A stretch of DNA of 64,000 nucleotides from Rhodospirillaceae bacterium MC! (GTDB lineage: Bacteria; Pseudomonadota; Alphaproteobacteria; MC1). Location of the stretch: positions 55,583 through 119,582 of the forward strand of contig NQOV01000007.1 of the NCBI GenBank assembly GCA_002632265.1. The letters are read 5' to 3'. The notes under the pieces were generated by a model. That model searched no databases, had not been told where the DNA came from, and saw only the letters and a program-made list of their open reading frames with translations. Position 1 is the stretch's first letter, and the number at the start of each line of letters is the position of its first letter. The position numbers were made by a program, and so were the translations under genes. Positions 14,971 through 33,660 of the stretch are shown piece by piece.

Positions 14971-15013
14971 TGTTCATACTCCTAAATAGTATTTGTAATT
15001 AATATTAATGAAA

Positions 15014-15118
15014 GGGGAATGAAAAAGTGCTTAGACAGTGTTCTTAAGATATGCGACCTGCAACTTACACGTTTACATAAGCATGGCTTAAGGACATTGA
15101 ATGAGTTCTTTTTCACAC
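15014..15118. repeat. Copy of a ~100-bp palindromic intergenic element (family B: gaaaaagtgct…cttaag…catggcttaaggac…gagttctttttcac).
   Basis: It shares terminal inverted repeats and internal cttaag/catggcttaagg modules with the elements at 19047..19148 and 21466..21556. Confidence 0.6.
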
Positions 15119-15126
15119 CACTTTAA

Positions 15127-16206
15127 TTATTTATTTTTATTTTTAAACATGCCAGGATCTCTCAATCTTTGGCGTTTAAGTTTGTAGCGACAAATATAAT
15201 TCCAGTTATAACTTACATCATATTTATGACATATACCCCATTCTGATAAACCTGGTGCATCATGTTCTTTTTCATCTCTTAAGATACCTAAAGCTTCAGG
15301 TGCTCCTTTGATGTGAGACATAATCTCGAAGTTTTCGCCGTCTTTAGCCCATTGAACGGTATTTTTTTCTGGTCCATCTGTAGTAAGTAACGCACCGATA
15401 CCACCATTATAATGCCATACGGCTACTTCATGCCCACTATTTGAAATTGGGTTTAGTTCTGATTTCACATATGGTCCAAGAATATTTTCGGCAATTGCTA
15501 CACCGTGTTTAATTTCACGTCCGCCGAAGTTCATTTCTTCGCCCATGGTTTCGCCTTTATAATATAAATAGAATTTATTTTTAAAGAACATCAAGCAAGG
15601 ATCATGAACCTTATGACTATCAAAACTTCCTTTTGATTTAACATAGAATCTATTATCTTCCTCGCCGTCCCATTCGCCATCACGAGAGGCTTGTACGATA
15701 GGAGCGTCCGACTTTGTCCACGGACCGAAAGGACTATCAGAATAAGCAATGGCAATATCTTCATACTGGCGGTTAAGATAAGGATACTGCACAGTCTGAT
15801 AAACTAGATAATATTTACCGTCATGAGCTAACACTTCAGGAGTGAAACAAGCACGATCATCGTATCGCCCTTCTTCGCCACGTTCGATAGCTACGCCTTC
15901 TTCTTTCCATGTAATACCGTCTTTAGATGTGCCGTGCCATACTTCTGTAAGATCCCATGGGAATACTTTTTCTGCCTTATTGGTAGATCCAAAACCTACA
16001 GTTTTCCCTGTACCTTTTGTATACCAACAATGATATACGCCATCAACTATAATAACAGCAGTGGGATCACGTCTAATTACCCCTTCTTCATAGGCAAAAT
16101 CGCCTTTTAAATCTGTAACTTCGAATTGAATGAAATAATCTTCATTTTTTGTATCATAGCCACGTTCTATAGCTCTTTGTGATGCTAAACTTAATTTTTT
16201 AGACAT
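15127..16206 (-). CDS. Glycoside hydrolase, 5-bladed beta-propeller type (GH43/GH130-like).
   Basis: An RDPTAV motif near the N-terminus and a propeller-like repeat organisation. The start is set at the second ATG, which has a ggaga RBS. The family assignment is tentative. Confidence 0.45.
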
Positions 16207-16695
16207 TTTGATTTTCTCCATATTTTAATAATAATATACTGATCTCTTTATGCGATTTATTTTAGCAAGCTTTTATAAAACTTCAATAAATACATCTTGA
16301 CCCTACATACAATAATAAGTTAATTTTATTTGCTACACAAGAAATATAACGCTTTCAATTAACCTTTAGGTTAATCATTAATATAAGATCATGTTTTTAC
16401 TAGGAAATTTCCGTATAACTAATTTTAATTATAGCTAAAAATAAGAGATTTAACCTCAATATGACCCCTTAATTATGGATATTTCCGAAGAATTCGTACT
16501 TTTTATGAATAAAAGCACCTATTTTCCCATATAATTCTTAAAAATATGAAGATTTCTCTCCATACTTTAAAGAAAATAACATTATATTTCAAACATTTAC
16601 TCCTTTAGTTAGTATTTTGGTTTAACTAAAGGAGATGTATACAATATTGAGTTAAAAAAAATACTCAATATTCTAATTGTGAGCCATAGCAGATT

Positions 16696-17778
16696 CTAAA
16701 TAAGCTCGGCGGTTGGATGTGCCTTACTCATTTGCGACCACCATTTATCTCGTGTGCCTTTTTTCAAGATAATGATCAAAGAACCACCAAAGCCTCCACC
16801 TGTTTGACGAGCAGATAAAGCTCCGAATTTCATAGCGTCTTTTACCATTGCGTCGGTTTCTGGGATTGTGATTTCATAATCTACCTTTTGCGATTCATGG
16901 CTTGCTAGCATTAGTTGGGATAGGGCTTGGATATCGTCATTTTTCAAAGCGTCTACGGCACTAATTACTCGATAATTTTCAGTTACAATATGACGGGCTC
17001 TTTTTTGTTCTAGCTCTGGCAGTTTTTCAATGCGTGGAAGATCTTTCATTGTTAGATCTCGTAAGCTTTCCACATTTAGCATTTTACAAGCACTTGCACA
17101 TTGTGCTACTCGTTTTGCATATTCGCCGTCTACTAAAGCGTGGGTAATTCCTGATTTCATTACTAGCCATTCGTAATCTTCATTTAAATGGACATTCACA
17201 TAATCAAGAGTTTTACAATCTAAGAACACGCCATAATTTTGTTTACCAACAGAAGAGGCGAATTGATCCATGATACCGCAAGGCATGCCCACATATTCGT
17301 TTTCTGCTTGTCGTGCTAGAATGGCAATATCCACATCTGATATATCAGTAAGATTCAATAATTTTACGATACCTCGAATGGTTACCACTTCCAACGCTGC
17401 CGAAGAAGAAACCCCTGCTCCTGTTGGCACGTTACTATCTACAATGATCTTTAATGACGGGATTTGTAAATCATATTTCTTGGCAACCACTTGGATACTA
17501 CCAATGATGTAATCTGTCCAATGATTTTTTTTCTCTTCGAAAATTTTACGTTCTGTTACTTCTTCAGGGAACATAGTAGACGCTAAGGTTAAGATGGCAT
17601 CTTTACCTACTGGATTATCATCATCCTGTAGAATGGAAAGATTTACAGTATGTTTTAAAGGAAAGGGGAAAACAAAACCATTATTATAATCCGTATGCTC
17701 TCCGATCAAGTTTGCACGCCCTGGAGCGGAAACTTGAATACATTTATCACTCTTAAATTGTTCTTGAAAATTCATCAT
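16696..17778 (-). CDS. galK: Galactokinase (GHMP kinase).
   Basis: APGRANLIGEHTDYNNGFVFP is the classic galactokinase signature. The GHMP ATP motif is PTGAGVSSSAA. Confidence 0.8.
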   Translation of the reverse strand: MMNFQEQFKSDKCIQVSAPGRANLIGEHTDYNNGFVFPFPLKHTVNLSILQDDDNPVGKDAILTLASTMFPEEVTERKIFEEKKNHWTDYIIGSIQVVAKKYDLQIPSLKIIVDSNVPTGAGVSSSAALEVVTIRGIVKLLNLTDISDVDIAILARQAENEYVGMPCGIMDQFASSVGKQNYGVFLDCKTLDYVNVHLNEDYEWLVMKSGITHALVDGEYAKRVAQCASACKMLNVESLRDLTMKDLPRIEKLPELEQKRARHIVTENYRVISAVDALKNDDIQALSQLMLASHESQKVDYEITIPETDAMVKDAMKFGALSARQTGGGFGGSLIIILKKGTRDKWWSQMSKAHPTAELI

Positions 17779-17914
17779 TATTTTATACTCCTAGTATTTT
17801 TGTATTGGATGTTTGTTAAGTGTTATATGTTTAGAAATATAGAAAGTAGTTTAACATTATACAATGTGTATATCAAACTACTTTCATGTTATTTTATACT
17901 CTCTAATGAGTGCT

Positions 17915-18967
17915 TTATACTTCTCTTAGACGTTTTGCAACATCTTCAGGAAGAATATCAGCTAAGAATACGCCTGTACCTTGTTCACATCCTGCTAAGA
18001 ACTTCAATTTATTAGCGTCTCTTTTAAACGGTAAGAATTGAGCGTTATAATAGAATGATTTTTCATCGCCTTTCGGAGAAGAATATTGAAGCATTACATA
18101 AGGCATTGTGTCATCGAAAATTGCGTCGTATCTTCTGATAACTCTTCCTAGTAGTTCGGCGTAATCAGGGATTTGGCTTGGTTGGATTTCCCATAATCCT
18201 GCCATGCGTTTTTTGGGAACTATCCAACTTTCAAAAGGAAAGCGTGCAAATGGCGGAACGATTTGGGCGAAGTGTTCGCTCTCGTCAACAACCAATTCAG
18301 GATTGTTTAAAATATCGCCTATAAGATTAGCGGTGCGGAATGTTTTCGCCATGTTTTGGACGTAAGTTGGAACATGCTCAAATGAATATATTTGACCGTG
18401 CGGATGTGGTAAGGTTACTCCTACCGCCTCGCCACGATTCTCAAAAGGCATAACGAATTTGATTTGGTCTCTTGATAATAGATCATTATATCTATGAATC
18501 CATGCTTCCACTAGAGTTTCACGACGAGAGTTTGGCATTTTGCCGAGATTTCCTGTGTGATCGCTTGAATATACTACAACTTCACATCTTCCTAAGGCTG
18601 GCGAATATTCGAAATCATCGGGAAGATTCTTTTTAGCGTCCAAATGCAATCCTGCGAAACGATTCTCAAACACGGCCACTTCGAAGTTTGCGAATGGTAC
18701 TTCGCCTTTATATCCGTCTTCAGGCACTGCACATAGTGGACAGTATTCTTTCGGTGGATTAAATGTGCGGTCTTGTCTACTTGGAGAATATACCACCCAT
18801 TCAGAAGTAAACGGATTCCAACGTTTATGAGGCTGTGGCTTGGTAGTTAATGGTGGCATATCGTTGGTTGGTTTTAAAGTATGCTCTTCTGTACCGAATA
18901 AAAATAGGTCTCTACCGTCTTCCTTTTCGTGGTGTCTAATTTTCGCTTTATGTGCAAATTGTTTCAT
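17915..18967 (-). CDS. galT: Galactose-1-phosphate uridylyltransferase (HIT family).
   Basis: CPLCAV zinc motif and HPHGQIY active-site motif. The start is moved to the internal ATG (MKQFAH…), which has an aaggaa RBS. Confidence 0.85.
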   Translation of the reverse strand: MKQFAHKAKIRHHEKEDGRDLFLFGTEEHTLKPTNDMPPLTTKPQPHKRWNPFTSEWVVYSPSRQDRTFNPPKEYCPLCAVPEDGYKGEVPFANFEVAVFENRFAGLHLDAKKNLPDDFEYSPALGRCEVVVYSSDHTGNLGKMPNSRRETLVEAWIHRYNDLLSRDQIKFVMPFENRGEAVGVTLPHPHGQIYSFEHVPTYVQNMAKTFRTANLIGDILNNPELVVDESEHFAQIVPPFARFPFESWIVPKKRMAGLWEIQPSQIPDYAELLGRVIRRYDAIFDDTMPYVMLQYSSPKGDEKSFYYNAQFLPFKRDANKLKFLAGCEQGTGVFLADILPEDVAKRLREV

Positions 18968-19046
18968 GTTATATTCCTTGTTAGTTTTACATGTTATTGT
19001 TATTGTTATTATTATGAATGAGTGCTTTTTATTTCTTAAACTCAAA

Positions 19047-19148
19047 GAGTGGGAAAAAGTACTTAGTCATTGTTCTTAAGGCATGCGTGGTGTATAACAC
19101 CCATACATGAGTATGACTTAAGGGCAATGAATGAGTGCTTTTTCACGC
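19047..19148. repeat. Family B palindromic element between galT and galE, plus an extra upstream half-site (aatgagtgcttttt at 19013..19030).
   Basis: gagtgggaaaaagtactt…ttcttaaggcatgcgtggtgtata…catgagtatgacttaagggcaatgaatgagtgctttttcac. Confidence 0.6.
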
Positions 19149-19152
19149 TCTT

Positions 19153-20133
19153 TTATAGGTTCTTTTTCTTCATATGCCAATCGTAAGCCGTTTGAATGAT
19201 AGTTTCTAGATCAGAGCGTTTAGGATTAAAACCTATAACATCACGGGCTTTTTGTGAAGAGGCTACCAACTGATCGGGATCTCCTGCACGACGTGGGGCC
19301 ATGATTACATCGATTTTATTGCCGACAACTTTTTCCGCCATTTGTAGAACTTCTTTACAAGAATAGCCATTCCCTGTACCTAAATTGAAGTAGTTAGTTT
19401 CCCCACCACCTATTAGATATTCCAATGATTTAAGATGTGCTTGAGCTAGATCATCCACATGGATATAATCACGTACGCAAGTACCGTCAGGGGTATTGTA
19501 GTCATCGCCCATAAGATTAAATGAAGATTTATTAATACTTGCACGTAAAATCACAGGAATTAAATGGCTCTCTGGAGTGTGATTTTCCCCAATATCGCCA
19601 CTATCTGACGCACCTGACGCATTAAAGTATCTTAATCTTACAGATTTTAAGCCGTAAGCATTGTCATAATCATCCATGATCTGCTCCATCATCAATTTAG
19701 ACGCACCGTAAGGATTAATGGGAGCTTTTAATTGTTCTTCATCGATAGGAACACTTTTCGGTATGCCGTAAACTGCTGCGGTTGAAGAGAAAACAATTTT
19801 TTTCACATCAGCTTTGATCATAGCGTCTAGCAAATTCAAAGTGCCGACAACATTATTATGATAATACATTGACGGATTCGCCACAGATTCGCCCACTTGA
19901 ATAAACGCCGCAAAATGAACAACCGCTACAGGTTTGTATTTTTGGAAAGTTTTTGCTAAAAGTTCGCTATCGTGGATATCGCCCTTTACGAATTCGCCGT
20001 ATTTAGTGGCATATTCGTGGCCACTGCTTAGATTATCGTAAACTACAGGAGTAAAACCATTTTCCGAAAGCATTTTACAAGTATGACTACCAATGTAACC
20101 TGCTCCACCTGCAACTAATATATATTTTGACAT
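19153..20133 (-). CDS. galE: UDP-glucose 4-epimerase.
   Basis: N-terminus VAGGAGYIGSH, YGASK catalytic motif, 326 aa. The RBS is aagga. Confidence 0.9.
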   Translation of the reverse strand: MSKYILVAGGAGYIGSHTCKMLSENGFTPVVYDNLSSGHEYATKYGEFVKGDIHDSELLAKTFQKYKPVAVVHFAAFIQVGESVANPSMYYHNNVVGTLNLLDAMIKADVKKIVFSSTAAVYGIPKSVPIDEEQLKAPINPYGASKLMMEQIMDDYDNAYGLKSVRLRYFNASGASDSGDIGENHTPESHLIPVILRASINKSSFNLMGDDYNTPDGTCVRDYIHVDDLAQAHLKSLEYLIGGGETNYFNLGTGNGYSCKEVLQMAEKVVGNKIDVIMAPRRAGDPDQLVASSQKARDVIGFNPKRSDLETIIQTAYDWHMKKKNL

Positions 20134-20411
20134 TAATTAAGATCCTTTAAAGTTAAGTACTAAAATGAAGTACTGAAATTAAGTATTGAAATTACAATAT
20201 TTTTCATGGAATATTTTTTTGAATTTTTATCCCAACAAGTAAATAATATCTCATATGAGAGATTAAAGCAAGATATTTTATTGCAAAAAACATCAAGATA
20301 TGTTATTTTTATACAAGAAAATAAAAAAGAGCGTGAAAAATGGTCTAATATGCACTTTAAAGCATGGCTAAGCCCATTTTTAAAACTCTTACGTATATAA
20401 GGAATCCGAGC

Positions 20412-21344
20412 ATGTTTAAAAACATCAGAAAGAAAGATAAATCCGATCGTAAATTTTATCATGAAGATGAAAAACAAATCAATATTATCAGACGTAAAAA
20501 CCACAGGGCATACCACTTACACACTCACGAGTTCGAAGAGATTTTACTTGTGCTTTCAGGCCATGGCGTTCATTTTCATAATAATGAGTACGATTTTCTT
20601 TTGCCTGGCTCGTGTTTTTATATTAAATCGGGGGAACGTCATTCATTTTCCAATACAAATAAGTTAAATATCATAAATATCGGCTTTTATGCCAACTATT
20701 GGAGCATACAAGAAACCACATTGGCCTCATTAATTCTTAAGTTTCAAGATTTATTAGTAAAAAACAATAGAAAGATCCATTTAACTGGACAAGTATTAAA
20801 TAAAATCGAAGAAATTATCCGCTGGCTAGAAATGGAAACCGCCATTGAACGTGAAAACAATCAGGATCAAAATAAAAATCAGAATCAGGAAAAAGAAAAC
20901 AATAACATTCTAATCACAAGCCTATTTACTCAACTGTTTTATTTAATCACAAGAACCAATGATACACAAGTCTATCATAGGGATCATTATAATAACATCA
21001 ATGACGATGTTTTTAATCTCTTAAAAATATACAAGTTTGCAAGCGATGATATTAATCAAGATAACATCAGCATAAAACAATATGCCAAAGATAACGGCAG
21101 AACATACAACACTTTTTTACGTCATTTCATCAGCATGGTAGGACTACCGCCGAAAGATGTGGAAAGCAAAATAAAACTCTACAACAGCCGAAACCTAATT
21201 CTACGCCACCCCACATGGAGCATTTCAAAAATCGCCATTCAATCAGGATTCGAAGATATCTCATACTTTTCCAAACTCTTCAAAAAAGAATTCGATCTTG
21301 CCCCTAAAAAATACGCTTTACAGAATAAGAGTAATATATCTTAA
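20412..21344 (+). CDS. AraC/XylS-family transcriptional regulator (N-terminal cupin-like sensor, C-terminal double HTH), divergent from the gal operon. It carries an N/Q/K-rich insert.
   Basis: C-terminal AraC HTH signature (…ISKIAIQSGFEDISYFSKLFKKEFDLAPKKY). The start is set at the second ATG, which has an aagga RBS. Confidence 0.7.
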   Translation: MFKNIRKKDKSDRKFYHEDEKQINIIRRKNHRAYHLHTHEFEEILLVLSGHGVHFHNNEYDFLLPGSCFYIKSGERHSFSNTNKLNIINIGFYANYWSIQETTLASLILKFQDLLVKNNRKIHLTGQVLNKIEEIIRWLEMETAIERENNQDQNKNQNQEKENNNILITSLFTQLFYLITRTNDTQVYHRDHYNNINDDVFNLLKIYKFASDDINQDNISIKQYAKDNGRTYNTFLRHFISMVGLPPKDVESKIKLYNSRNLILRHPTWSISKIAIQSGFEDISYFSKLFKKEFDLAPKKYALQNKSNIS

Positions 21345-21408
21345 TATCTGTTATTGTAATATTTTAATACTTGTGATCTAGCAAAAAAATATCACAACCT
21401 ATATGACG

Positions 21409-21466
21409 AATACTAAACCTAAGGGGTGGGAAACCTAAGGGGTGGGAAACCTAAGGAGTGGGAAAA
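21409..21466. repeat. Three tandem 16-bp units (aaacctaaggggtggg) abutting the 5' end of a family B element.
   Basis: Direct reading: actaaacctaaggggtgggaaacctaaggggtgggaaacctaaggagtggg. Confidence 0.6.
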
Positions 21467-21556
21467 AGTACTCATCCAGCGTCCTTAAGCCATGCGTGGT
21501 GTATACACCACTACATGAGCATGGCTTAAGGACGCCAAGATGAGTGCTTTTTCACA
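21466..21556. repeat. Family B palindromic element between the AraC gene and coaBC.
   Basis: gagtgggaaaaagtactc…gcgtccttaagccatgcgtggtgtatacacc…catgagcatggcttaaggacgc…gagtgctttttcac. It contains a long internal inverted repeat. Confidence 0.6.
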
Positions 21557-21560
21557 GCCC

Positions 21561-22751
21561 TTAAAGAAGATCTATAATCTCTTGAACTATCAAGCGAGCA
21601 GTTTCTTTTTTGTTGCATTCGGTCATGGATTTACTATTGGTTGGGGTTATGAAAGTTATCTTGTTGTTATCTGATCCGATATATGATGTGTCGTTTAAGA
21701 CAATAGCGTCTAGGGATTTTCGTTGTAGTTTGCCTTTGGCGTTTTCCATGCCGTTATCACTTTCGGCAGAAAAGCCGATTATAAGTTTGTTGTTAGCGGA
21801 TCTGTCATTTGCTAAGGTTTTGATTATATCGGGATTTTTAATAAGTTCTAAAAAAACTTTATCGACCTTTTCGTCCTTTTTGATTTTGCTTTCCGAATAG
21901 TTGGCCACTCGATAATCGGATACGGCCGCACAACCGATAATAATATCGGCATTTTTGTTGAATTTTAAGGTTTCGGCTAGCATATCTTTGGCACTATAAG
22001 CACGGATAACCTTAAGATCATCAGGAATATCAACGGATACATTCCCCACAATAGCGGTAACATTTGCCCCCAAACGAGTGGCCTCTTGGGAAATTTCTAT
22101 GCCCATTCTACCGCTTGAACCGTTGGTAATATAACGGGCAGGATCAATCTTTTCTATCGTACCGCCAACAGTAATTAAAAGATTCACACCTAATAAGGGC
22201 TTATTGCTATTCCCCTTGGTATCTTCATAAAGATTTTCTATGGCGTTGATGATAGTTTCATGCTTGGGCAATCGTCCAATTCCCATTACACCGCAAGCAA
22301 GCATGCCACTTTCAGGTTCTAAAAAATTCACGTCGTAACTTGTAAGCTTTTTCATATTATCTTGATTTATGGGATTTAAATACATATTAGTATTCATTGC
22401 TGGACATATGAGCTTTAAGGAAGTGGTCGCCGAAAATATGGTAGTAAGGAAATCATCGGCAATTCCGTTAGCAACTTTACCGATGAAATTATAACTTGCA
22501 GGAGCTACAACGAAAACATCCGCCCATGTGGCAAGTTCGATATGTTCGACCTTACTATATTCTTCTTCATTCCACATATTCATATGCACATGATTTTTAC
22601 TAATGGTTTCCAAAGCTAAGGGCGAAACCATTTTGCTGGCGTTATGCGTCATTACCACACGGATATCGTGTCCGCACTTTCTAAGTTGTGAGACAAGATC
22701 CACACATTTATAACTAGCTATTCCGCCACATATTCCCAGTAATATTTTCAT
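21561..22751 (-). CDS. coaBC: Bifunctional phosphopantothenoylcysteine decarboxylase / phosphopantothenate-cysteine ligase.
   Basis: N-terminal flavoprotein motif (ILLGICGGIASYK) plus a C-terminal CoaB domain. 396 aa. Confidence 0.85.
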   Translation of the reverse strand: MKILLGICGGIASYKCVDLVSQLRKCGHDIRVVMTHNASKMVSPLALETISKNHVHMNMWNEEEYSKVEHIELATWADVFVVAPASYNFIGKVANGIADDFLTTIFSATTSLKLICPAMNTNMYLNPINQDNMKKLTSYDVNFLEPESGMLACGVMGIGRLPKHETIINAIENLYEDTKGNSNKPLLGVNLLITVGGTIEKIDPARYITNGSSGRMGIEISQEATRLGANVTAIVGNVSVDIPDDLKVIRAYSAKDMLAETLKFNKNADIIIGCAAVSDYRVANYSESKIKKDEKVDKVFLELIKNPDIIKTLANDRSANNKLIIGFSAESDNGMENAKGKLQRKSLDAIVLNDTSYIGSDNNKITFITPTNSKSMTECNKKETARLIVQEIIDLL

Positions 22752-22767
22752 AATACGCTCCCCTATC

Positions 22768-23541
22768 CTATAAATTAAGTTTCGCTATGGTGCATAAGCC
22801 GTCCATTGTGAGATCTGGTATATATTCATTATCTATGGTCAAATAAGGCAGAACTATTGGGGCTTGCCCACCATTTATGATAGTTACGATATTATCTTCA
22901 TTTAACTCTTGTTTGAATTTATTAACCATGCCTTCAATTAAACAAACATAGCCAAGAACCATACCAGATTGTAAAGCGTGAGTCGTGTTTGAGCCGATGA
23001 TGTGATCGTTATATTCAAGCGGTATGGATTTCAGTTGGGCCGCCTTAGAGACTAAAGCATTAAAGGACGTTCCCAAGCCTGTAGTAATAGATCCCCCTAA
23101 GAATTCACCCTTGCCGTTTATGGTTACGATAGTTAGAGCCGTACCTAATGTTAGGATTATCGTAGGGCCTTGGAATTTTTCCCATGCACTTACGGCATTG
23201 ACGATAAGGTCTGCTCCTGTGGCTTTGGGAGTATCGGTTTTTATGGTGATATTTAAGTTAAGATCAGGGGAAACGATAAGAAATTTTTTACTGCTTAAAT
23301 ATTTCTCATGCCATAACTTTAAAATGGAAGTTAAAGCAGGAACAACACTACTTAAAACCACTTTAGATATATGATCATAGGACATATTTAAGGTTTTAAG
23401 AAAATAACTTATTTGCATGGAGTATTCGTCAGCGGTTCGCAATTCGGAAGTTCTTAAGCGAAAACTCCCCACTGGGATATTATTTAAGTCATATATGGCA
23501 AGCTTAATGTTAGTATTGCCCACATCTATATTTAATAACAT
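22768..23541 (-). CDS. coaX: Type III pantothenate kinase.
   Basis: N-terminus LLNIDVGNTNIKLAIY. 257 aa. Adjacent to coaBC. Confidence 0.8.
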   Translation of the reverse strand: MLLNIDVGNTNIKLAIYDLNNIPVGSFRLRTSELRTADEYSMQISYFLKTLNMSYDHISKVVLSSVVPALTSILKLWHEKYLSSKKFLIVSPDLNLNITIKTDTPKATGADLIVNAVSAWEKFQGPTIILTLGTALTIVTINGKGEFLGGSITTGLGTSFNALVSKAAQLKSIPLEYNDHIIGSNTTHALQSGMVLGYVCLIEGMVNKFKQELNEDNIVTIINGGQAPIVLPYLTIDNEYIPDLTMDGLCTIAKLNL

Positions 23542-23568
23542 TCTTTACAATCCGCTCTTTTAATTAAT

Positions 23569-24345
23569 TTATAGCTTTGAGGCATTCATATAATTGTTAT
23601 TAATGGGATTGGAACGTCCTTGTGAATTGGCGGTTAAAAAATTCCCTGTTTGTGTATATAGCCCTGCAACATAGGATTGAGTTCTCGCACCAAGTGGCGA
23701 ATCAGGGAATGGATACTCGTTGCTAGTCCCTACAGGATTCTTAAATTGAAAGTTATTGTAATGGCTCGCCACATCAGGATTGATATTACTAGTCTCTGGC
23801 ATGTTGTTATTGGTGGTGTTATTATAAGCACTATGAGCATAACTTACAGAACTCTTGGCAAAACTAAAATTATTAAGCCCAAGTGATGAATGAATTTTCT
23901 TTTCCACATCCTTATATGATGTGATAGATTCTGCGTTATCCTGATCCTTATCATTATCAAATAAATCGCCTTGAGCTTGAGCCTGGGTTTGATCTGGCTC
24001 TTGATCATGATCTTGCCCTTGAGCTTTCTTATTTTTATTAAGATCTAGCGTAATTTCTGATTGATTTTCTTTAATGCTGTTTAATTGTGATAACTGTTCT
24101 TGTGCCATAAGCAAAGCCGATGCCACATTACTATTATATTTCGGCCCTGTACTAACACGAACTAGGGATTTAGCCTGTTGTGTTTTAGCTACATTTTGCT
24201 CAATATTGGGTTTTTGCGTTTGACTTTCGCCTAAATCTTTCGGCTTAAACTTAACTTGAGATATTTTGTATCTGTTCTTTCTTGGCGATACAGACGTACT
24301 CGAATAGCTCGACAATAATGAATTTAAATTACTAATATAAGACAT
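23569..24345 (-). CDS. Hypothetical N/Q/S-rich, predicted disordered protein with no signal peptide or TM.
   Basis: Low-complexity composition throughout (…NKNKKAQGQDHDQEPDQTQAQAQG…NNTTNNNMPETSN…). No recognisable domain. Confidence 0.3.
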   Translation of the reverse strand: MSYISNLNSLLSSYSSTSVSPRKNRYKISQVKFKPKDLGESQTQKPNIEQNVAKTQQAKSLVRVSTGPKYNSNVASALLMAQEQLSQLNSIKENQSEITLDLNKNKKAQGQDHDQEPDQTQAQAQGDLFDNDKDQDNAESITSYKDVEKKIHSSLGLNNFSFAKSSVSYAHSAYNNTTNNNMPETSNINPDVASHYNNFQFKNPVGTSNEYPFPDSPLGARTQSYVAGLYTQTGNFLTANSQGRSNPINNNYMNASKL

Positions 24346-24504
24346 AAGTTTTAACCTTTACATAAAACATTGTTCAGAATAACATTTTTATTTAATATAT
24401 GTAATCATAGTATACCATTCTTTCAATACAATTACAATATAAAACTATAAACACCAACTAACTTATTATACACACCCTTAAAATATAATGTAAATTCATA
24501 ACCA

Positions 24505-24880
24505 TAACCCACATACATATTAGCTCATTTATCACGATCCGCAGGATTGGGAGAAATGGGATAAGATGTGCCTTATCTTAGGGCGACGTGTACTTAATAC
24601 CTACACTAACCCTAGTTTAAGGTGCAGATTAGCCCCTTTATCACGATCCGCAGGATTGGGAGAAATGGGATAAGATGTGCTTGTAAATAGGGCGACGTGT
24701 ACTAAATGCTTACACTAACCCTAGTTTAAGGTGCAGATTAGCCCCTTTATCACGATCCGCAGGATTGGGAGAAATGGGATAAGATGTGCCTTATCTTAGG
24801 GCGACGTGTACTAAATGCTTACACTAGCCCTAAGATAAGGTACATATTAGCCCATTTCTCCCAATCCTAATTAGGGTTTT
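24505..24880. repeat. Tandem array of three 109-bp units (family A) with partial flanking copies. Each unit contains internal hairpins.
   Basis: Unit starts at 24531, 24640 and 24749 (atcacgatccgcaggattgggagaaatgggataagatgtgcc…gggcgacgtgtac…aaccctagtttaaggtgcagattagcccc). The 3' flank ccatttctcccaatcct is the reverse complement of aggattgggagaaatgg. Confidence 0.8.
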
Positions 24881-26529
24881 ATGGCTTTTTGGTATAGAGC
24901 CTTGATTTTTACTACGTCTTGCTTAAACTTACGTAGGCTTCGATTTCTAAGGTTTTCGCCTGCGGGAGAAAGTGGGCCTAGGGGGTCTATGGGGTGGCCG
25001 TATTTTCTAATTTCGTAATGGACGTGATAGCCTGTGGCGTATCCTGTCATACCTACAAAGCCGATAACTTGACCTTTTCTCACATGACTTCCCACACGTA
25101 AGCCACCTTGGAAATGATCCATATGGGCGTAGTATGTCGTATATACCGAGTTGTGGCGGATGATTATCACGTTACCGTATCCTCGAATCCAGCCACGGAA
25201 TTGGATAACGCCTTTACCACCTGCAAAGATAGGGGTATTTTTTGCCACTGCATAATCTATGCCTGTATGATGTACCCATTTATGTAATATGGGATGATAG
25301 CGACGTGGGGAAAATTTAGACGATATGTACGCATGAAGTACGGGACGGCGTAATAATGTATGTCTTGCACTCATTCCTAAACTGTTAAAGTAATCGCTCA
25401 TACCTCTTGAATAGGTAAAGAAATATAGGGGATGATCATGGTGGCTAATATTCAGATTTGCATATAAAATCTTACTATTGCGTGTGGTTGTGTCGTTTCT
25501 GTATACATCTTGTTTGTACATTACTTGGAATTTATCGCCTGGGTGGATATTACGTCTAAAATCAATACTCCAACCGTACAGATTCTTAAACTTATATAAA
25601 ATACCGTGGCTCATGCCATTTTCTATGGCTTCAGAATCCAGAGATGTTTTAATGATACCTTCAACCTTAACTACACGAGTATGTTTTTTATAGTTAACCA
25701 CTTTACTCACGAATAACTTTTTTAACTCTTCAGCGGAAATATGTTCTATGTCGGCTGGTTGAGTGTAATTTAGTACCACATCTTTTTTGTAATTAATACG
25801 AACTTTTACAACTGCGGGGATTACTCTATCTTTAGGTTTTGGCTTGTTATAGATGAAGGTAAATTGATCCCCTGGGTGGATACTTACTGGCGAATATCCT
25901 TGCCTGTCCAGTTCTTGGATTATGTAATAGGCTTCCTTGTTCGTATAGCCTTGAGTTGCGAGAATCTGATTGAGTAACTGACCAGATACAACCTTAACGT
26001 TTCTTGTAAAAGGATAGGTAATCTTTTTGGCAACCTTAGAATCTACACCTTTTGAGCCTGTATTATTCTTTTCTGTATTCGAACTTGAAAACCAAGATGT
26101 TACGGTATCCCATATGCCTTTATTTTCATTGTCTTTATCTTCATCGCTATCACTTACAAGCGAACCGCCGTTATCTTCGGCATTGGTTAAATTTGCATCT
26201 GCTAATTCATCATCAGGATCTTTGGGGATAATAACATGTTTACTATCGATTGACGGCTTTAAACCTTTGTTATCGATAATAGTATCATCGGTCTGCCCCG
26301 AAACGTCTGCGGAATTTTTTACTTGGATGTTGGGCAGTTCGGCAGCGTCGCTCTCATCTTTTTTACTATTATTTTCATAATGTAAATCTTGCTCTATTGT
26401 TTCATTCATCTCGGACACAGATTCTCCCTGTGAACTCGAGTACCATAAATAAGCGATCAGAAGTATTGCAAAAATCGCAATAGCAACCAACATTTTAAGC
26501 CTATATTGTGATAGTAAATATTTTTTCAT
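24871..26529 (-). CDS. Murein DD-endopeptidase, M23/LytM family, with an N-terminal TM and OapA-like domain (MepM/YebA-like). It carries an acidic low-complexity insert.
   Basis: C-terminal M23 motifs (HTGIDYA … GYHVHYE). The track ORF begins at a TTG, so the start is set at the first ATG (MKKYLL…). Confidence 0.75.
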   Translation of the reverse strand: MKKYLLSQYRLKMLVAIAIFAILLIAYLWYSSSQGESVSEMNETIEQDLHYENNSKKDESDAAELPNIQVKNSADVSGQTDDTIIDNKGLKPSIDSKHVIIPKDPDDELADANLTNAEDNGGSLVSDSDEDKDNENKGIWDTVTSWFSSSNTEKNNTGSKGVDSKVAKKITYPFTRNVKVVSGQLLNQILATQGYTNKEAYYIIQELDRQGYSPVSIHPGDQFTFIYNKPKPKDRVIPAVVKVRINYKKDVVLNYTQPADIEHISAEELKKLFVSKVVNYKKHTRVVKVEGIIKTSLDSEAIENGMSHGILYKFKNLYGWSIDFRRNIHPGDKFQVMYKQDVYRNDTTTRNSKILYANLNISHHDHPLYFFTYSRGMSDYFNSLGMSARHTLLRRPVLHAYISSKFSPRRYHPILHKWVHHTGIDYAVAKNTPIFAGGKGVIQFRGWIRGYGNVIIIRHNSVYTTYYAHMDHFQGGLRVGSHVRKGQVIGFVGMTGYATGYHVHYEIRKYGHPIDPLGPLSPAGENLRNRSLRKFKQDVVKIKALYQKAIKP

Positions 26530-26667
26530 TAGCTTGTTATCTTTCAATTATCATTCTGGTAGATGAAAAATCTATAAATATTGTAAAATTTATCTTTCAA
26601 TCCTAGTTCTTTTTTCTTAAAATATAGTAAAGGCGAATCTTTTCAACTAAATACAAAGGTAATATAA

Positions 26668-27680: not shown

Positions 27681-29510
27681 ATGGACACAAATTTTAATAA
27701 TATCTTCCATAAAGTAACAAAAGAAATTTTTTATATTTTATCCAATTCTCAAGAGGATTCTATGGAATTTAGTTATTTTGAAGAAAGTAATATTCTAGAA
27801 AATAGCATGATCTTAAAATCCCCTAAGAATCTCGAAAATAAAAGCAATAGGGATCTTTTGCGATATACTGCGGATTTTTTCTCATTTCATAAGCGTTATC
27901 ATGATGATGATATTTTTCAGCAAGTATCAGCTCAAGCTACATCCGAATGGCAAGTGAATTTCTTACAATCGGCAGAAAATGCCCGCATTATCGCCCTAGC
28001 TCATAGGGATCATAAACATATGCTAGGAATAAAAAATAATCTCAAAGGATACGCTAAAACCTTAAAAGATGATACTTTATATTACTTTCTTAATATCTTA
28101 AACTTTAAATTGCCCAAAAATTTGTTCCAAGAACGTAATGAAATTAACTACGATTATGACTTTGACGATCTTTATGGATACATATGTAGGCAAAAAGAAT
28201 TCCTATCTCGTGTACTAACTACCATACATATAAAAGAGCGTAATCTTCATGACAATCATAATTCTAGGGAAAACTCGCACACCAAGGATAATAACCTAAG
28301 TATGGACAGCCAATCTCCCAACAATCTCACTGACGATGACAATAATAATAACTTAAGCGATCAACAGAACACTAATACCGCCTTGAACACTCTTCAAAAT
28401 AATACTCCCACTCAAAATAATACTCCCACTCAAGAGAATAGTTCCGCTAGCAAAACAAATATACAAGATCATGAACATAATCAAGAAAATTCCCCAGTAA
28501 GTAGAGAAATGATCAATGATCATACTACATATGAATCCCAAGGTGAATCCCTACATGAATCCCAAAAGTACTTTGCTCATACAAAAAAGTACGATAAAGA
28601 ACTCATGGCCATCAATCTCGAATCCTTTAAAGGAGAGGCCATAAACTTAAGGAAAAAGCTCGATACAGAACTAAGTAATACCACAAATAGCAATATAAAT
28701 ATACTCGCCTTAAAACTTCAACGCAAATTACAATCTAAAAAATATACTGCTCGTAGTGATAATCTATCCCATGGAATTCTCGATAGAAAAAAACTATATA
28801 AAGCAATCACATCCCCCCTTGCTCCGAATGTCTATTACAAGGAAAGCACACGAGAAGAAATTGATACAACCGTAACCATTTTAGTGGATAATTCAGGATC
28901 TCAAATGGGAAATGCCATAACAACTTCATGTATCTCATGCGATCTTTTAGCTAAGGTATTTGAAAGATGTAATATATCATGCGAAATATTAGGATTCACA
29001 ACAAGAAATTGGCAAGGTGGCTTCAGCTTTAAGGATTGGCAACAGCACCTTAAACGCAATCCCCATAAATTACAACAAAGCAATAATGCAGGTCGTTTAA
29101 ATGATCTGTTACATATTATATATAAACCTGCAAACAAAAAGTATAAGCTAACAAAAAATAGTATGGCGATGATGTTAAAACGTAGCATACTAAAAGAAAA
29201 CATCGACGGCGAAGCCCTAGAATGGGCTTACTCTCGCCTATCACAAAGATCAGAACAACGCAAAATCCTCCTAGTAATATCCGACGGCACCCCCGCCGAC
29301 GACATAACCCAAACATATAACCATAAAAATTACCTACTCGAACACCTAACAAAAACAATAGAAACAATCAACAACGATAAATCCGTCGAACTCCTAGCCA
29401 TCGGCATGGGCTTCGATATCCAAAGCATATACAAAAATAGCATCTCCATAAAAGACTACAAAAACCTCGGACAAACCATAATGAATCTTTTCCTACAAAA
29501 ACTCATATAA
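27681..29510 (+). CDS. cobT: CobT-like protein with a C-terminal von Willebrand A domain and a long N/T/Q-rich low-complexity insert.
   Basis: MIDAS motif (ILVDNSGSQ) in the C-terminal domain. Partner of cobS. Confidence 0.7.
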   Translation: MDTNFNNIFHKVTKEIFYILSNSQEDSMEFSYFEESNILENSMILKSPKNLENKSNRDLLRYTADFFSFHKRYHDDDIFQQVSAQATSEWQVNFLQSAENARIIALAHRDHKHMLGIKNNLKGYAKTLKDDTLYYFLNILNFKLPKNLFQERNEINYDYDFDDLYGYICRQKEFLSRVLTTIHIKERNLHDNHNSRENSHTKDNNLSMDSQSPNNLTDDDNNNNLSDQQNTNTALNTLQNNTPTQNNTPTQENSSASKTNIQDHEHNQENSPVSREMINDHTTYESQGESLHESQKYFAHTKKYDKELMAINLESFKGEAINLRKKLDTELSNTTNSNINILALKLQRKLQSKKYTARSDNLSHGILDRKKLYKAITSPLAPNVYYKESTREEIDTTVTILVDNSGSQMGNAITTSCISCDLLAKVFERCNISCEILGFTTRNWQGGFSFKDWQQHLKRNPHKLQQSNNAGRLNDLLHIIYKPANKKYKLTKNSMAMMLKRSILKENIDGEALEWAYSRLSQRSEQRKILLVISDGTPADDITQTYNHKNYLLEHLTKTIETINNDKSVELLAIGMGFDIQSIYKNSISIKDYKNLGQTIMNLFLQKLI

Positions 29511-29611
29511 TACAAACCATACAAATACTTACACACACAACCCCCAACAAAAACAAAAAATCCCTTGCATTATCATATCCCATATTATATATTATAAAGC
29601 GTATCCTTTAT

Positions 29612-29696
29612 GGGGAGATGCCTGAGTGGTTAAAAGGGGTGGACTGTAAATCCATTGGCTACGCCTACATAGGTTCGAATCCTATTCTCCCCACCA
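29612..29696 (+). tRNA. tRNA-Tyr (anticodon GUA), type II with a long variable arm. CCA is encoded.
   Basis: Acceptor stem GGGGAGA/TCTCCCC, anticodon loop ctGTAaa, T-arm GGTTCGAATCC, 3' ACCA. Confidence 0.85.
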
Positions 29697-29750
29697 TACA
29701 TATAAAATAAAGCAATATCCATGCGATATTGCTTTATTGCGTTTTGTAGT

Positions 29751-30560
29751 TTAGTTGAGTTTTGATAGGTGGAAGTTGTAGTCGCATTGGGGGCAGAATT
29801 TGTTGTTGGGGACGTTGAAGTTTTCGCAGGAGGTGCAGGGGATGAAGTTGGGGTTGTTTTCGCATTGGCCGCAGTATTGGGCGTATTCGTTATCACTGAC
29901 ATCTTTATAATCGCAAGTGTTACATAGGTTGGGATCGCCTACGGTGGGGTGGGTGGGGTCGGTGTATTCTTCTGTGACTGTGGTTGTGGTAATTTCTTCT
30001 TCATCGTCGTAGTCGGAGCTACCGCTACCGAAGATACTGCCATGGCCGTTGTTGTTATTGCGATGTTTATTTTTTTTCTTTCTAAAGCTGAATCTGTATA
30101 TTAAATAGATAACAAGAAGCAGTAAGATAATATCAAACAAGCCAATGCCACCGCTACCGCCTGCACCACCGTAGTTACCGCCTGCACCGTAGCCATCACC
30201 ATAACCACCGCCATGATGAAATAGCGAGCTTAAGATATAGCCACCTAAAAGACCGTGCATGATTCCATAACCGTAAGAATGTCTTCTGCCGAAGAATCCG
30301 CCACGAGAGCTTCCTCTTCTTGTGGTTGTGGTGGTTGTTCTTCTCATATTACGGGGAGAAGTGCTATGTGAATTACTAAAAAAGCTTTTATTTGTGCTTG
30401 GTCTGAAGTTTGATCTTGGGATAGACGATGAGCTAGGTCTGAAATTACTCATACCGCGGGACATTCTAAAGCTACTACGAGCGTAAGTATTAATAGGAAT
30501 AGTTATCATTGATATCATAAAAATAGATATAAAAACAATTGCAATACTTTTCAATTTCAT
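29751..30560 (-). CDS. Hypothetical protein with a signal peptide, an R/S-rich then Gly/Tyr-rich segment, one TM, and a C-terminal 4xCxxC double zinc-ribbon.
   Basis: MKLKSIAIVFISIFMISMITIPINTYA signal. GGYGDGYGAGGNYGGAGGSGG. C-terminus CNTC…CGQC…CTSC…CPQC. Confidence 0.4.
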   Translation of the reverse strand: MKLKSIAIVFISIFMISMITIPINTYARSSFRMSRGMSNFRPSSSSIPRSNFRPSTNKSFFSNSHSTSPRNMRRTTTTTTRRGSSRGGFFGRRHSYGYGIMHGLLGGYILSSLFHHGGGYGDGYGAGGNYGGAGGSGGIGLFDIILLLLVIYLIYRFSFRKKKNKHRNNNNGHGSIFGSGSSDYDDEEEITTTTVTEEYTDPTHPTVGDPNLCNTCDYKDVSDNEYAQYCGQCENNPNFIPCTSCENFNVPNNKFCPQCDYNFHLSKLN

Positions 30561-30652
30561 GTTAAGTAAGTCTTTCTTTTTAATATTAAAATAGGTAAGT
30601 TATATGATATTATCACTAACTCTTATCTAAGTCAATATATTTCTTGTTTGTT

Positions 30653-31699
30653 TTATTTATTTAAAGATTCTAAACTCCAACGTGGTTTTGGGGAAAAATC
30701 AAGAGCTGATACATTCCCTTTTTTGAAATTTTCCAAGCCTGCCCATGCTATCATCGCCCCATTATCTGTACATAACTTTATGGGCGGATAGTAAAGATGT
30801 AGCTGATTCTTTTTTGCTATTTCCTCCAGTGTTGATCTAATGGCCTGATTAGCTCCAACACCGCCACCTACAACGAGATTTTCCCCATGGGGGTAAAGAT
30901 CTTTGAACATTTTCACCGCATGTTTAGTACGATCTTTAATGATTAATTGTACGGTATATTGAAAGGACGCACAAACATCTTTAATATCTTGATCACTCAC
31001 CTTATCGAAGCCGATTTTTTCCAATTCACGACGAACGGCGGTTTTTAGTCCAGAGAAAGAAAAATCGCAATTCTTACGCCCTTTTAAGGGAGTGGGGAAT
31101 GTAAAGCGGTGTTTATCGCCATGGTTTGCCAATTCTTCGACTATCACGCCACCAGGATATCCTAGACCGAGCATTTTAGCGGTTTTATCGAATGCTTCTC
31201 CTAAGGCGTCATCTATGGTTGAGCCTAAAAGCTTATATTTTCCCACTTCTTCTACGCATAAATATTGACAGTGGCCGCCTGATATGAGTAGTAACAAATA
31301 AGGAAAGGCTACATTTTCATGGGCTAGCCTTGCGGTGAGAGCGTGGCCTTCCAAGTGATTGACGCATATCAATGGAATCTTTCGGCTTGCACTTAAGGCC
31401 TTCGCTGTCATTAATCCGACGATAACTCCACCGATCAAGCCAGGGCCTGCGGTTACGGATATGGCGTCCAGTTCATCAAGATCCATATGAGCATCGTCGA
31501 GAGTTCCTTGTATTATGCTTTCGATTTTATCCAAATGGGATCTTGCAGCAATTTCAGGCACTACCCCACTATAGGGTTTATGTTCTTCCAATTGGGAAAA
31601 AATACGATGTGATATGATTCGTTGATCCACATCATTTATATCTTGTACGATACTTGCGGATGTTTCATCGCAACTTGTTTCTATTCCTAAGACTTTCAT
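30653..31699 (-). CDS. tsaD: tRNA N6-adenosine threonylcarbamoyltransferase.
   Basis: MKVLGIETSCDETSASIV N-terminus, HLEGH metal motif, 348 aa. Confidence 0.9.
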   Translation of the reverse strand: MKVLGIETSCDETSASIVQDINDVDQRIISHRIFSQLEEHKPYSGVVPEIAARSHLDKIESIIQGTLDDAHMDLDELDAISVTAGPGLIGGVIVGLMTAKALSASRKIPLICVNHLEGHALTARLAHENVAFPYLLLLISGGHCQYLCVEEVGKYKLLGSTIDDALGEAFDKTAKMLGLGYPGGVIVEELANHGDKHRFTFPTPLKGRKNCDFSFSGLKTAVRRELEKIGFDKVSDQDIKDVCASFQYTVQLIIKDRTKHAVKMFKDLYPHGENLVVGGGVGANQAIRSTLEEIAKKNQLHLYYPPIKLCTDNGAMIAWAGLENFKKGNVSALDFSPKPRWSLESLNK

Positions 31700-31829
31700 T
31701 ATATCTACTTTGCTCTCTCTCGTAGTTACTTTTATTAAGAAAAATTTATATAAACTCTTGCATTTTTCTTGATTTTATTATAATATCACATATTATATAT
31801 TATTTATCTAAAGGTGTAAATTAAAATTT

Positions 31830-32786
31830 ATGAAGAAGATCAAAATTGGTACAAGAAAAAGTCCTTTAGCACTCAAGCAAGCCAGCGAAGTTAAGGGAAA
31901 ATTAGAAGAAATTTCACAAAAAGAATCTCTAAATTATACCTTTGAAATAGTAGCCATGTCAACCACAGGGGATGACATTCAAAATAAACCTTTAGCACAA
32001 ATCGGCGGTAAGGGATTATTCACAAAAACCATAGATGTAGCACAGTTAAACGGTCATATTGATCTTGCTGTCCATTCCATGAAAGATGTTCCGACGGTTT
32101 TGGAAAATGGCTTAGTAATAGAAACCGTTCTCGCTCGAGAGTTGGAAAATGACGCCTTTTTATCCTTAAAATATCAATCATTATCTCATATGCCTAAAGG
32201 TGGGATAGTAGGTACTAGCTCCTTAAGACGTGCGTCATTTATTGGTTCTAAATATCCCCATTTAAAGATTGTACCTTTTAGGGGGAATGTGCAAACACGC
32301 TTGCAGAAGTTAAATGACGGTATCGCCGATGCTACCATTCTTGCATGTGCAGGCTTAAACAGATTGGATATATTTAAGGAAGTAAACGCCGTAAAGATCC
32401 CCATAGATGAGATGATTCCTGCTCCTGCCCAAGGTATCATCGGCATAGCACATAGAAAAGAAGATAGGGAAATCTCAAGCTTATTAGCAAAGATCAATAA
32501 TCAAGATGTCTTTACTCGTATGCTTGGCGAACGTGCTTTTTTAAGGGAAATTGATGGCTCTTGCCGTACGCCCATTTCTGCCTATTCCCATAAGATAGAT
32601 GATAAACTACATTTAATCGTAGCCATTTTGTCGGTTGACGGATCTATCATTTATAAGGAACAAGGCACATGTGATTTTAATGATCAGGACGCTAGCAATC
32701 TGGGTATTTCCCTAGCTCAAATCATCAGAAAAAAAGCAGGTCAAGAGTTTTTTGATGATTTATTTAGTCATATCATGAACGAATAA
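31830..32786 (+). CDS. hemC: Hydroxymethylbilane synthase (porphobilinogen deaminase).
   Basis: IGTRKSPLALKQA N-terminus and a dipyrromethane cofactor Cys region (GSCRTPI). Confidence 0.9.
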   Translation: MKKIKIGTRKSPLALKQASEVKGKLEEISQKESLNYTFEIVAMSTTGDDIQNKPLAQIGGKGLFTKTIDVAQLNGHIDLAVHSMKDVPTVLENGLVIETVLARELENDAFLSLKYQSLSHMPKGGIVGTSSLRRASFIGSKYPHLKIVPFRGNVQTRLQKLNDGIADATILACAGLNRLDIFKEVNAVKIPIDEMIPAPAQGIIGIAHRKEDREISSLLAKINNQDVFTRMLGERAFLREIDGSCRTPISAYSHKIDDKLHLIVAILSVDGSIIYKEQGTCDFNDQDASNLGISLAQIIRKKAGQEFFDDLFSHIMNE

Positions 32787-32825
32787 GAATTAATGAGAAG
32801 AATTAATGAGAAAAATTAATGAGTA
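32787..32825. repeat. Three tandem 13-bp units (gaattaatgagaa) spanning the hemC stop and the next gene's start region.
   Basis: Direct reading of 32781..32830. Confidence 0.55.
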
Positions 32826-33643
32826 AGAATATGTTATCAAAAAAAGAAATATTTGATCTAATAGCCAGTAGGTTAACGGTTAATAATACAAATAAATGTT
32901 ATAAGTTAGATGATAACTTATTGCAACGTTACATCCTGTTAAATGGTAAGTTAGAATTAATTACTTTAAATAGTCAATTGAAATCCAATAGTAATGATCC
33001 CATAGTTCTCGCCTTATTTGGCTTGGATGAACCACCTTTAAAGCAAAAGTATATTGATAAAATCAACAACGAAAAATTCACTAAGTATTCCACTGCAAAA
33101 ACTACAGGATGTGCTTCACCTTTTGAGGGATTAGTCCATATTATTTTCGGTCAACAGGTTTCGCAAGCGGTGGCAAGTAAAATGAAATCTCTCTTTTTAG
33201 AGAAATTCGGCTCGGATCATTGTGATTCGAATAATCAATGCTTTAGAATATTTCCTGAACCAAGCGAGTTTTTAAATTCCTACGAAAAAATAGAAAATTA
33301 CGATAATGGATTCAATAAGAAAAGATTCCAATATATCATAAATATCGCCATATTTTTAGAGAAAATTAACACCTTCGCTCAAGTGAAAGCTATTCCAGAT
33401 TATAGGGAACAATTACTAAATATCAAAGGCATAGGCAATTGGTCCTTAAACTGGTTCGAACTTTCTGCCATGCGAAATTTTGATACGTTAGCAATTACCG
33501 ATCTCATAGTAAAAAGATCTCTCATAGATATCCTAAAACTCGATAATCCCACTAACGACGAACTAACTGCCAGTCTTGCAAAAGAATTCCCCACCCAGTT
33601 GGGAACTATCAGTACTAAAATGCTGTTGTCATATAAGAATTAG
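32819..33643 (+). CDS. HhH-GPD superfamily DNA glycosylase (AlkA-like 3-methyladenine DNA glycosylase II).
   Basis: Helix-hairpin-helix + Gly/Pro-Asp region (LLNIKGIGNWSLNWFELSAMRNFDTLAITDLIVKRSL). Confidence 0.55.
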   Translation: MSKNMLSKKEIFDLIASRLTVNNTNKCYKLDDNLLQRYILLNGKLELITLNSQLKSNSNDPIVLALFGLDEPPLKQKYIDKINNEKFTKYSTAKTTGCASPFEGLVHIIFGQQVSQAVASKMKSLFLEKFGSDHCDSNNQCFRIFPEPSEFLNSYEKIENYDNGFNKKRFQYIINIAIFLEKINTFAQVKAIPDYREQLLNIKGIGNWSLNWFELSAMRNFDTLAITDLIVKRSLIDILKLDNPTNDELTASLAKEFPTQLGTISTKMLLSYKN

Positions 33644-33660
33644 GAATGAGAATAGCCCTT

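Follow-up and report, generated by a model that had tools for sequence, protein, structure and literature searches.

The array occupies an intergenic region of the window (the whole 64-kb stretch of DNA that was analyzed, to which all positions refer). The initial annotation had placed it between the 3′ end of an M23 peptidase gene and the 5′ region of an N/Q-rich gene, and this location was correct; both genes are on the minus strand (Table 1). The M23 protein was matched by a database entry that was 100% identical, 540 aa long and started 18 codons later. Its TAA stop is at 24871-24873, and the adjacent array element, E3, begins 2 nt past the stop. The N/Q-rich ORF, which is of low complexity and is followed downstream by coaX and coaBC, matched no Pfam family and had no homologue at E<=1e-3 among 5.8 billion proteins. 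The array is separated from this ORF by 166 AT-rich bases, has a G+C content of 43% as against 22% for the rest of the same intergenic region, and contained no ORF >35 aa; it is thus non-coding, and a hidden coding region was rejected on the same count. The promoter-like site in the AT-rich segment suggests that the N/Q-rich ORF may have its own promoter, at a level of evidence set by consensus matching in a region where promoter-like and terminator-like sites were as numerous as expected by chance. No canonical terminator was found between the M23 gene and the N/Q-rich ORF, and no minus-strand terminator-like site in 23400-25400, so the array is the only strong structure of the M23 3′ region. 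On the mRNA-sense strand E3 is followed by GCGGAUCGUGAU and has no U-tract of the kind that defines an intrinsic terminator.

Table 1. Genes, array elements, related repeats and stop codon junctions in the window
Feature	Position	Strand	Description
M23 peptidase gene (MepM/NlpD-like)	24871-26547	-	Pfam Peptidase_M23 (1.2e-29) and Csd3_N2
N/Q-rich orphan ORF, 258 aa	23569-24345	-	Downstream of the array; called as a gene in the draft assembly
Promoter-like site	24465-24494	-	TTTACA-18-TATAAT, 11/12; between array and N/Q-rich ORF; consensus match only
Remnant right arm, Y0 type, outer 29 nt	24512-24540	-	Arm pattern with 0 mismatches; nhmmer unit positions 81-109
E1	24543-24651	+	X left arm 24543-24584; Y right arm 24609-24649; then GC joint
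E2	24652-24760	+	X/Y chimera as E1; 91.7% identical to E1
E3	24761-24868	+	X-type arms on both sides, 24761-24802 and 24827-24868; intact palindrome
Short family A derivative	56497-56562	+	15-bp stem AAATGAGCTAATATG/CATATTAGCTCATTT, then T-run; nhmmer E 0.02
Solo Y-type arm	62893-62939	-	Outer 17 bp tandemly duplicated; nhmmer E 8e-4; no fold, z -0.04
Small palindromic element	20327-20390	+	Family B outer end AAGAGCGTGAAAAA, family A inner module TGGTCTAATATGCAC; nhmmer family A E 6e-4
Family B full copy B1	15004-15132		Dispersed in the 64 kb
Family B full copy B2	19034-19163		Dispersed in the 64 kb
Family B full copy B3	21442-21567		Dispersed in the 64 kb
Family B solo arm	38862-38886
Possible family B remnant TAAAGCACTCATT	about 17902-17914		Directly after galT-like stop
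M23 junction			TAA tt AGGATT
346-aa gene junction	at 62941		TAA g GGATCG
GH43-like, galE-like, coaBC and 38886 gene junctions (all family B)			TAA directly followed by AAG or GGG
trkA junction			TAA act AGCGTT

A 109-bp tandem array was reported by Tandem Repeats Finder at 24519-24857 (3.1 copies, 90% matches, score 557), a second repeat search returned three copies at a spacing of 109/109, and the contig NQOW01000034.1 from a separate draft assembly of this organism (GCA_002632305.1) was 100% identical over E1, E2 and the left arm of E3. The claim of a 3 x 109-bp array was thereby borne out, and because the array is present in two assemblies it is not an assembly artifact. The description of its units as near-identical holds insofar as they are three related copies but was generous: identity was 88-92% in the phase originally used (starts 24531/24640/24749) and 83.5-91.7% in the phase of the elements (E1/E2 91.7%, E1/E3 86.2%, E2/E3 83.5%). 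The draft contig corresponds to window positions 12488-24812 at 100%, bar one 43-bp indel elsewhere, and stops at 24812, within the loop of E3; that a short-read assembler should break at the center of a long perfect palindrome would be unsurprising. The ends of two draft contigs that fall inside the window (12488, 24812, 47557 and 62209) do not track the repeat families, and the breaks are therefore uninformative on copy number. The 43-bp stretch at 16335-16377, which has the palindrome TTAACCTTTAGGTTAA, is in the window, missing from the draft contig and the sole difference between them in 12.3 kb; either a polymorphism or a difference in assembly could account for it. Two tRNA-Met (CAT) genes in 101-bp tandem duplication (62068-62269, 92-98% identical) lie where the second draft contig ends.

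In its natural phase the array consists of a remnant arm and three whole-length palindromic elements, joined by the dinucleotide GC, in the arm order Y- GC X+ center Y- GC X+ center Y- GC X+ center X-. All elements have in common a 42-nt left arm of type X (AGGATTGGGAGAAATGGGATAAGATG...) and a 24-nt center with a 5-bp mini-hairpin (GTGTA-9 nt-TACAC; at 24588-24606 in E1); they differ on the right, where E3 has the reverse complement of X as its arm and E1 and E2 have a diverged type Y (...GGTGCAGATTAGCCCCTTTATCACGATCC). The outer ends of the arms are AGGATTGGGAG and GGATCGTGAT, and the element end sequences include AGGATTGGGAG and AAGAGCGTGAAAAAG. E3 is 108 nt long and has terminal inverted repeats; its two arms (42 nt, 93% complementary) constitute the inverted repeat that had been claimed to bound the array, which is real and longer than was originally given. 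The 29-nt remnant is what is left of a fourth element, now degraded, on the promoter side of the array, and sequence to the left of 24512 showed no similarity to the unit. Differences between E1 and E2 are confined to unit positions 30, 32-36, 53, 57 and 59 and are clustered, with six bases in positions 30-36 and three in the 9-nt loop of the mini-hairpin, the stem of which is untouched; this clustering suggests templated events and not scattered point mutation. No donor for the E2 patch was found in the window, and its interpretation as a compensatory change was rejected since stability falls to -35.4 kcal/mol from -40.8 kcal/mol in E1.

When folded as RNA, E3 gave a dG of -72.1 kcal/mol on the plus strand and -67.5 kcal/mol on the minus strand (z -14.3 and -12.9); as DNA the values were -44.4 and -39.9 kcal/mol, and z ranged from -13 to -16 across RNA and DNA folding. 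Because their arms are X/Y chimeras, the other two elements fold weakly: E1 gave -40.8 kcal/mol on the plus strand (z -4.8) and -30.8 kcal/mol on the minus strand (z -2.3), and the minus strand of E2 gave -25.0 kcal/mol (z -1.9). X and Y arms folded singly yielded -0.2 to -4.1 kcal/mol (z +0.95 to -1.3). The internal hairpin ataagatgtgccttatctta proposed in the initial annotation was no better than shuffled sequence (arm alone -2.5 kcal/mol, z -1.2); the actual structure is the whole-unit palindrome together with the 5-bp central mini-hairpin (GTGTA/TACAC). The decayed copies E1, E2, B1 and B2 (the last two from family B, described below) gain 10-20 kcal/mol when folded as the plus strand, the one antisense to the adjacent genes, since their mismatched positions are G-T there. 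This asymmetry is in part a left/right arm difference that is inherited in family B, and its direction is opposite to that which would be expected from the usual replication- and transcription-linked deamination biases.

Relatives of the array unit (family A) were sought with nhmmer over the 64-kb window using an HMM of the three array units. No second full-length unit was found in the 64 kb. A unit confined to the array was the observation that the initial annotation had set against a repeat family, and over this distance the full unit was unique to the array. Arm-length matches were obtained at 20329-20370 (E 6e-4), 62887-62922 (8e-4) and 56523-56558 (0.02), and matches to the arm-module patterns numbered 9 against 0.00 expected and 8 against 0.21 expected. 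Family A arm modules thus occur above chance at three other intergenic sites (20338, 56506/56535 and 62895/62898), so that the claim of dispersed relatives stands for arm modules, which recur at three sites, but only at arm length and not for the full unit. The array and the distant loci have arm subtypes X, Y1 and Y0 in common; the Y0 arm at 24513-24530, for example, matches 56535-52 at 16/18 bases.

Two of these sites had been described as palindromes (56497-56560 and 62893-62945), and they fared differently. The former is a hairpin (dG -26.6 kcal/mol, z -5.4) that lies directly after the trkA stop, between convergent genes, and with its stem and T-run it looks like an intrinsic terminator. 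The latter is a solo arm and does not fold (Table 1). It fills the 48-bp spacer between the convergent rpiB gene and a 346-aa gene, and each of its two ends, the outer and the inner, lies 1 nt from a different TAA. The third site, 20327-20390 (dG -16.8 kcal/mol, z -3.2), links families A and B through its hybrid composition: the outer end AAGAGCGTGAAAAA agrees with the right end of B2 at 14/14 bases (20327 and 19139), and the inner module is of family A. Tandem repeats were also present at the tips of elements: at 62906-62940, where the solo Y arm has its outer end, 17 bp occur 2.1 times, and at 21415-21465 the left tip of B3 has 3.2 copies of 16 bp. Such duplications point to slippage or to repeated processing of the ends.

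The second family, B, is likewise intergenic and palindromic, with elements of 113-130 bp that have arms of ~45 nt and a small central hairpin, an architecture like that of family A. B3 is near-perfect (dG -68.6 kcal/mol, z -9.8) and the other two copies are decayed, mirroring E3 versus E1 and E2. Both sides of a stem pair were changed with the pair kept at 7/45 positions among the three copies, compared with 3.2 ± 1.2 in shuffles (2/500 reach 7) and 0-2 in slid controls; for this sister family, and with the little power of three sequences, these compensatory pairs argue that the palindrome has been maintained or regenerated and is not accidental. The right end of family B elements always abuts the TAA stop of a minus-strand gene. 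Distal B arms have degenerate TAA-containing tips (TGAA, TCAA, CTAA), which suggests that the TAA belongs to the element.

In both families, every gene-proximal arm has its outer end 0-3 nt from a TAA stop, the genes concerned being M23, GH43-like, galE-like, coaBC, the 38886 gene, trkA, rpiB and the 346-aa gene. Under a null of uniform placement, computed by hand from coordinates for elements in head-to-tail intergenic regions whose ends were defined by similarity, the array, with a gap of <=2 nt in its 525-nt spacer, had P ~0.018, B1 had 0.028 and the arm at 38862 had 0.006, and jointly P was <1e-5. Canonical A-tract/stem/T-tract terminators in the window (e.g., 13401-13465, 11266-11305 and 35943-35983) start 20-70 nt past stops, so the abutment is a property of these elements and not of all 3′ hairpins. 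Exact abutment of TAA stops is the one unusual feature that might repay follow-up. It is rather improbable that families A and B constitute an undescribed superfamily of "mobile terminators", directional palindromes that insert at or supply stops; this reading would take in the conserved left/right arm asymmetry, the TAA at the tips, the location at stops of housekeeping genes and a host that resembles a deep-branching alphaproteobacterial lineage, and would make the 3 x 109-bp array a record of repeated self-adjacent insertion. If true, it would imply a transposition or copying machinery with target choice at the level of the stop codon.

Signs of mobility were looked for in the window. No consistent target-site duplication was found: E3 is flanked by GC and AA, B1 and B2 are without direct repeats, and B3 alone could be read as having TA...TA flanks. 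None of the 55 ORFs >=120 aa in the window encodes a transposase or RAYT, the only recombinase being a XerC-like gene beside DUF484, and the window contains no parent insertion sequence with matching terminal repeats; nor was an empty site found.

Searches outside the window used a degenerate 25-mer that matches all seven array arms. Among 185,579 species-representative genomes, a set that does not include the host genome, there were 5 single 25-mer matches in unrelated taxa, none of which extends past the seed; the same was true of 5 single 25-mer matches in JGI metagenomes. None of 17 single 17-mer matches in viral contigs convincingly extends past the seed, the longest model alignment being 33 nt (E 0.015) on loci that were pre-selected for the seed, and blastn against plasmids and phages gave no match. 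With Rfam 15, four tRNAs were the only features of the window to pass, and the array reached no gathering score; its best match was MIR7994, at 49 bits versus a gathering score of 100, and such sub-threshold matches to plant microRNA precursors, at roughly half the gathering scores, were taken as generic long-hairpin matches. Best non-self identities were 34% for M23 and 56% for the CobS ATPase, so there are no orthologous loci in relatives to compare. Named CobS matches at 53-54% were few and mostly from alphaproteobacterial MAGs, and 8/8 window proteins looked up by exact sequence were singletons at 90% identity. The low identities and the singleton proteins indicate that the host lineage is isolated.

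Other features of the window were recorded in passing. GC skew changes from negative to positive near 32 kb (~28000-34000), beside tsaD and hemC; this may mark a replication origin, and the genes beyond are mostly still on the minus strand. At 34260-35866 dnaX appears to be divided between two ORFs 2 nt apart, one of 399 aa with domains I-III and one of 134 aa with the tau C-terminal DUF3646; a frameshift, recoding or a genuine split could account for this. A chemoreceptor gene at 8555-11244 is partly duplicated (9725-10232 versus 10591-11101, ~80% identical), leaving a 221-aa sCache-only ORF beside the full MCP, each with a similar terminator hairpin. A stretch of 29% GC at 40851-47164 encodes an ankyrin-repeat protein with at least 8 repeats, then an AAA_15/AbiEii-like ATPase with a partner, then a Fic/DOC protein; these may be accessory or defense genes.

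Taken together, we consider it reasonably probable that the array is a cluster, amplified locally, of a REPIN/BIME/MITE-like palindromic repeat that acts as a 3′-end hairpin. The elements would have spread by a copying mechanism supplied in trans, with old copies decaying into solo arms. The three units would have arisen in situ, by unequal recombination or replication slippage between exact repeats of 50-60 nt or, alternatively, by repeated insertion beside a resident copy, and two clustered, probably templated, multi-base changes would have altered them later. Transcription of M23 would produce a minus-strand RNA in which E3 folds into a hairpin of -67.5 kcal/mol beginning 2 nt past the stop. 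This hairpin could serve as a 3′-end barrier, for termination and/or for protection from 3′ exonucleases, and could insulate M23 from the downstream ORF with its own promoter-like site. Located so near the stop, it may also slow ribosome release; Liang, Rudd and Deutscher are said to have reported in 2015 that REPs of E. coli within about 15 nt of a stop affect translation termination. Should this amplified-repeat reading be right, a lineage without a close relative among 5.8 billion proteins would have its own REPIN/MITE-like palindromes directly after stops, which would add one case to what is known of how compact genomes tolerate selfish hairpins or reuse them as 3′-end signals and would give a reason for the break of a short-read assembly at the array locus.

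An unlikely alternative is that the array is a private local duplication, in which a single long M23 3′ hairpin or terminator was triplicated in tandem by slippage and the short similarities at other sites reflect shared terminator-like sequence (A-tract, stem, T-tract) and not a mobile family. The uniqueness of the full unit within 64 kb, the shortness (29-42 nt) and modest E-values (6e-4 to 0.02) of its relatives, the presence in the window of further small tandem duplications at the ends of elements, and the failure to find a transposase or target-site duplication there are all consistent with it. Distinct arm subtypes X, Y1 and Y0, however, are shared with distant loci (56535-52 and 62898-62939), the two-subtype chimeras E1 and E2 are hard to derive from one hairpin, an A/B hybrid is present at 20327, and the sister family B is clearly dispersed, all of which argue against it.

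Two further readings make the array a functional RNA. A structured non-coding RNA locus, in which a regulatory plus-strand transcript antisense to the M23 3′ end would contain repeated hairpin modules, is very unlikely. The structured-RNA interpretation, which the initial annotation had offered as an option, was not upheld: the array reached no Rfam gathering score, the counts of promoter and terminator sites equal chance expectation, folding on the mRNA-sense strand is weak for E1 and E2, and no orthologues were found in which to look for conservation. In its favor are the better folding of the plus strand of E1 and E2 (-40.8/-35.4 versus -30.8/-25.0 kcal/mol; 4 G-U pairs versus 1), which the 3′-UTR model does not predict for degenerate copies, and a promoter-like site on the plus strand, although weak, at 24357-24385, together with a terminator-like site at 24883-24901; the strand asymmetry, being partly the left/right arm difference inherited in family B, is not independent evidence. 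That the array is an antitoxin-like or regulatory RNA for the N/Q-rich ORF, in the manner of a type III toxin-antitoxin system or a 5′ leader, is hardly credible. Tandem repeats do lie upstream of an orphan ORF on the same strand, but the ORF is of low complexity, matched neither a Pfam family nor a homologue and has nothing ToxN-like about it, it is separated from the array by a promoter-like site, and like elements follow unrelated housekeeping genes. Type III systems have short repeats upstream of a ToxN/AbiQ-like gene, an arrangement that was not found here; ToxI-type repeats are ~36 nt, and the array units are 109 nt.

Several known types of repeat were rejected on inspection. Clustered CRISPR repeats were rejected as the array repeats abut directly and have no unique spacers, and integron attC sites as the neighboring genes are housekeeping genes; CIR-like GANTC sites were rejected as the array contains no GANTC.

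The array was compared with described families of palindromic repeats. MITE-like elements of 105-150 bp (ERIC, RUP, Correia, CIR, RPE and SPRITE; PMC3184786) resemble it in size, terminal inverted repeats, intergenic position at the 3′ ends of genes, probable co-transcription and fragmentation on decay, and SPRITE is, like the 56497 copy, a terminator-like repeat. E3 has terminal inverted repeats as these elements do, but neither a TA nor any other target-site duplication was detected for the elements described here, nor any sequence similarity to these families. The features given for these families in the passages of PMC3184786 that were covered do not include exact abutment of TAA stops. 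The comparison with a selfish palindromic repeat family of the RPE type made in the initial annotation is sound as to kind, since the elements are palindromic over their whole length and non-coding, their modules recur and a sister family is dispersed, but membership in RPE is not supported: many RPEs are inserted in frame within protein-coding genes, whereas every copy of A and B in the window lies between genes and has its end at a stop codon, and the host is distant from every sequenced taxon.

REPINs of Pseudomonas fluorescens SBW25 (Bertels & Rainey 2011, PMC3116915) are likewise hairpins of ~70-110 nt formed from two inverted arms, mostly extragenic, with solo arms read as decayed remnants, and tandem repeats of near-identical hairpin doublets are their commonest higher-order arrangement (PMC3116915). 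The array has two inverted arms that form one long hairpin (E3, with 42-nt arms) and three tandem units that are 84-92% identical. In REPINs, however, the arms are REP sequences linked to a RAYT transposase gene; here no RAYT is in the window, no sequence is common to the arms and known REPs, and one palindrome runs through the whole unit in place of two short REPs with a spacer between them. In its alternating orientation, two subtypes (X and Y) and two alternating linkers (GC and the 24-nt center), the array is arranged as are BIME-2 and clustered REPs (Di Nocera et al. 2013, PMC3733652), for which arrays of alternating inverted units and heterodimers of different subtypes are documented. 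REPs themselves are self-folding stem-loops of 20-40 bp with a terminal GTAG or CGTC, whereas the array arms do not fold alone and have CGTG, and the duplicated module at 62915-62939 is the sole place where CGTC occurs; most CGTC-type REPs come from alphaproteobacteria (PMC3733652). Membership in the REP, BIME or REPIN families is thus not supported either. The best-supported assignment would place the element, with families A and B, in a superfamily of intergenic palindromes that is specific to this genome and falls in the REPIN/BIME/MITE/ERIC/RPE class of size and shape. It is a new sequence family, ordinary in kind, and not a new kind of system.
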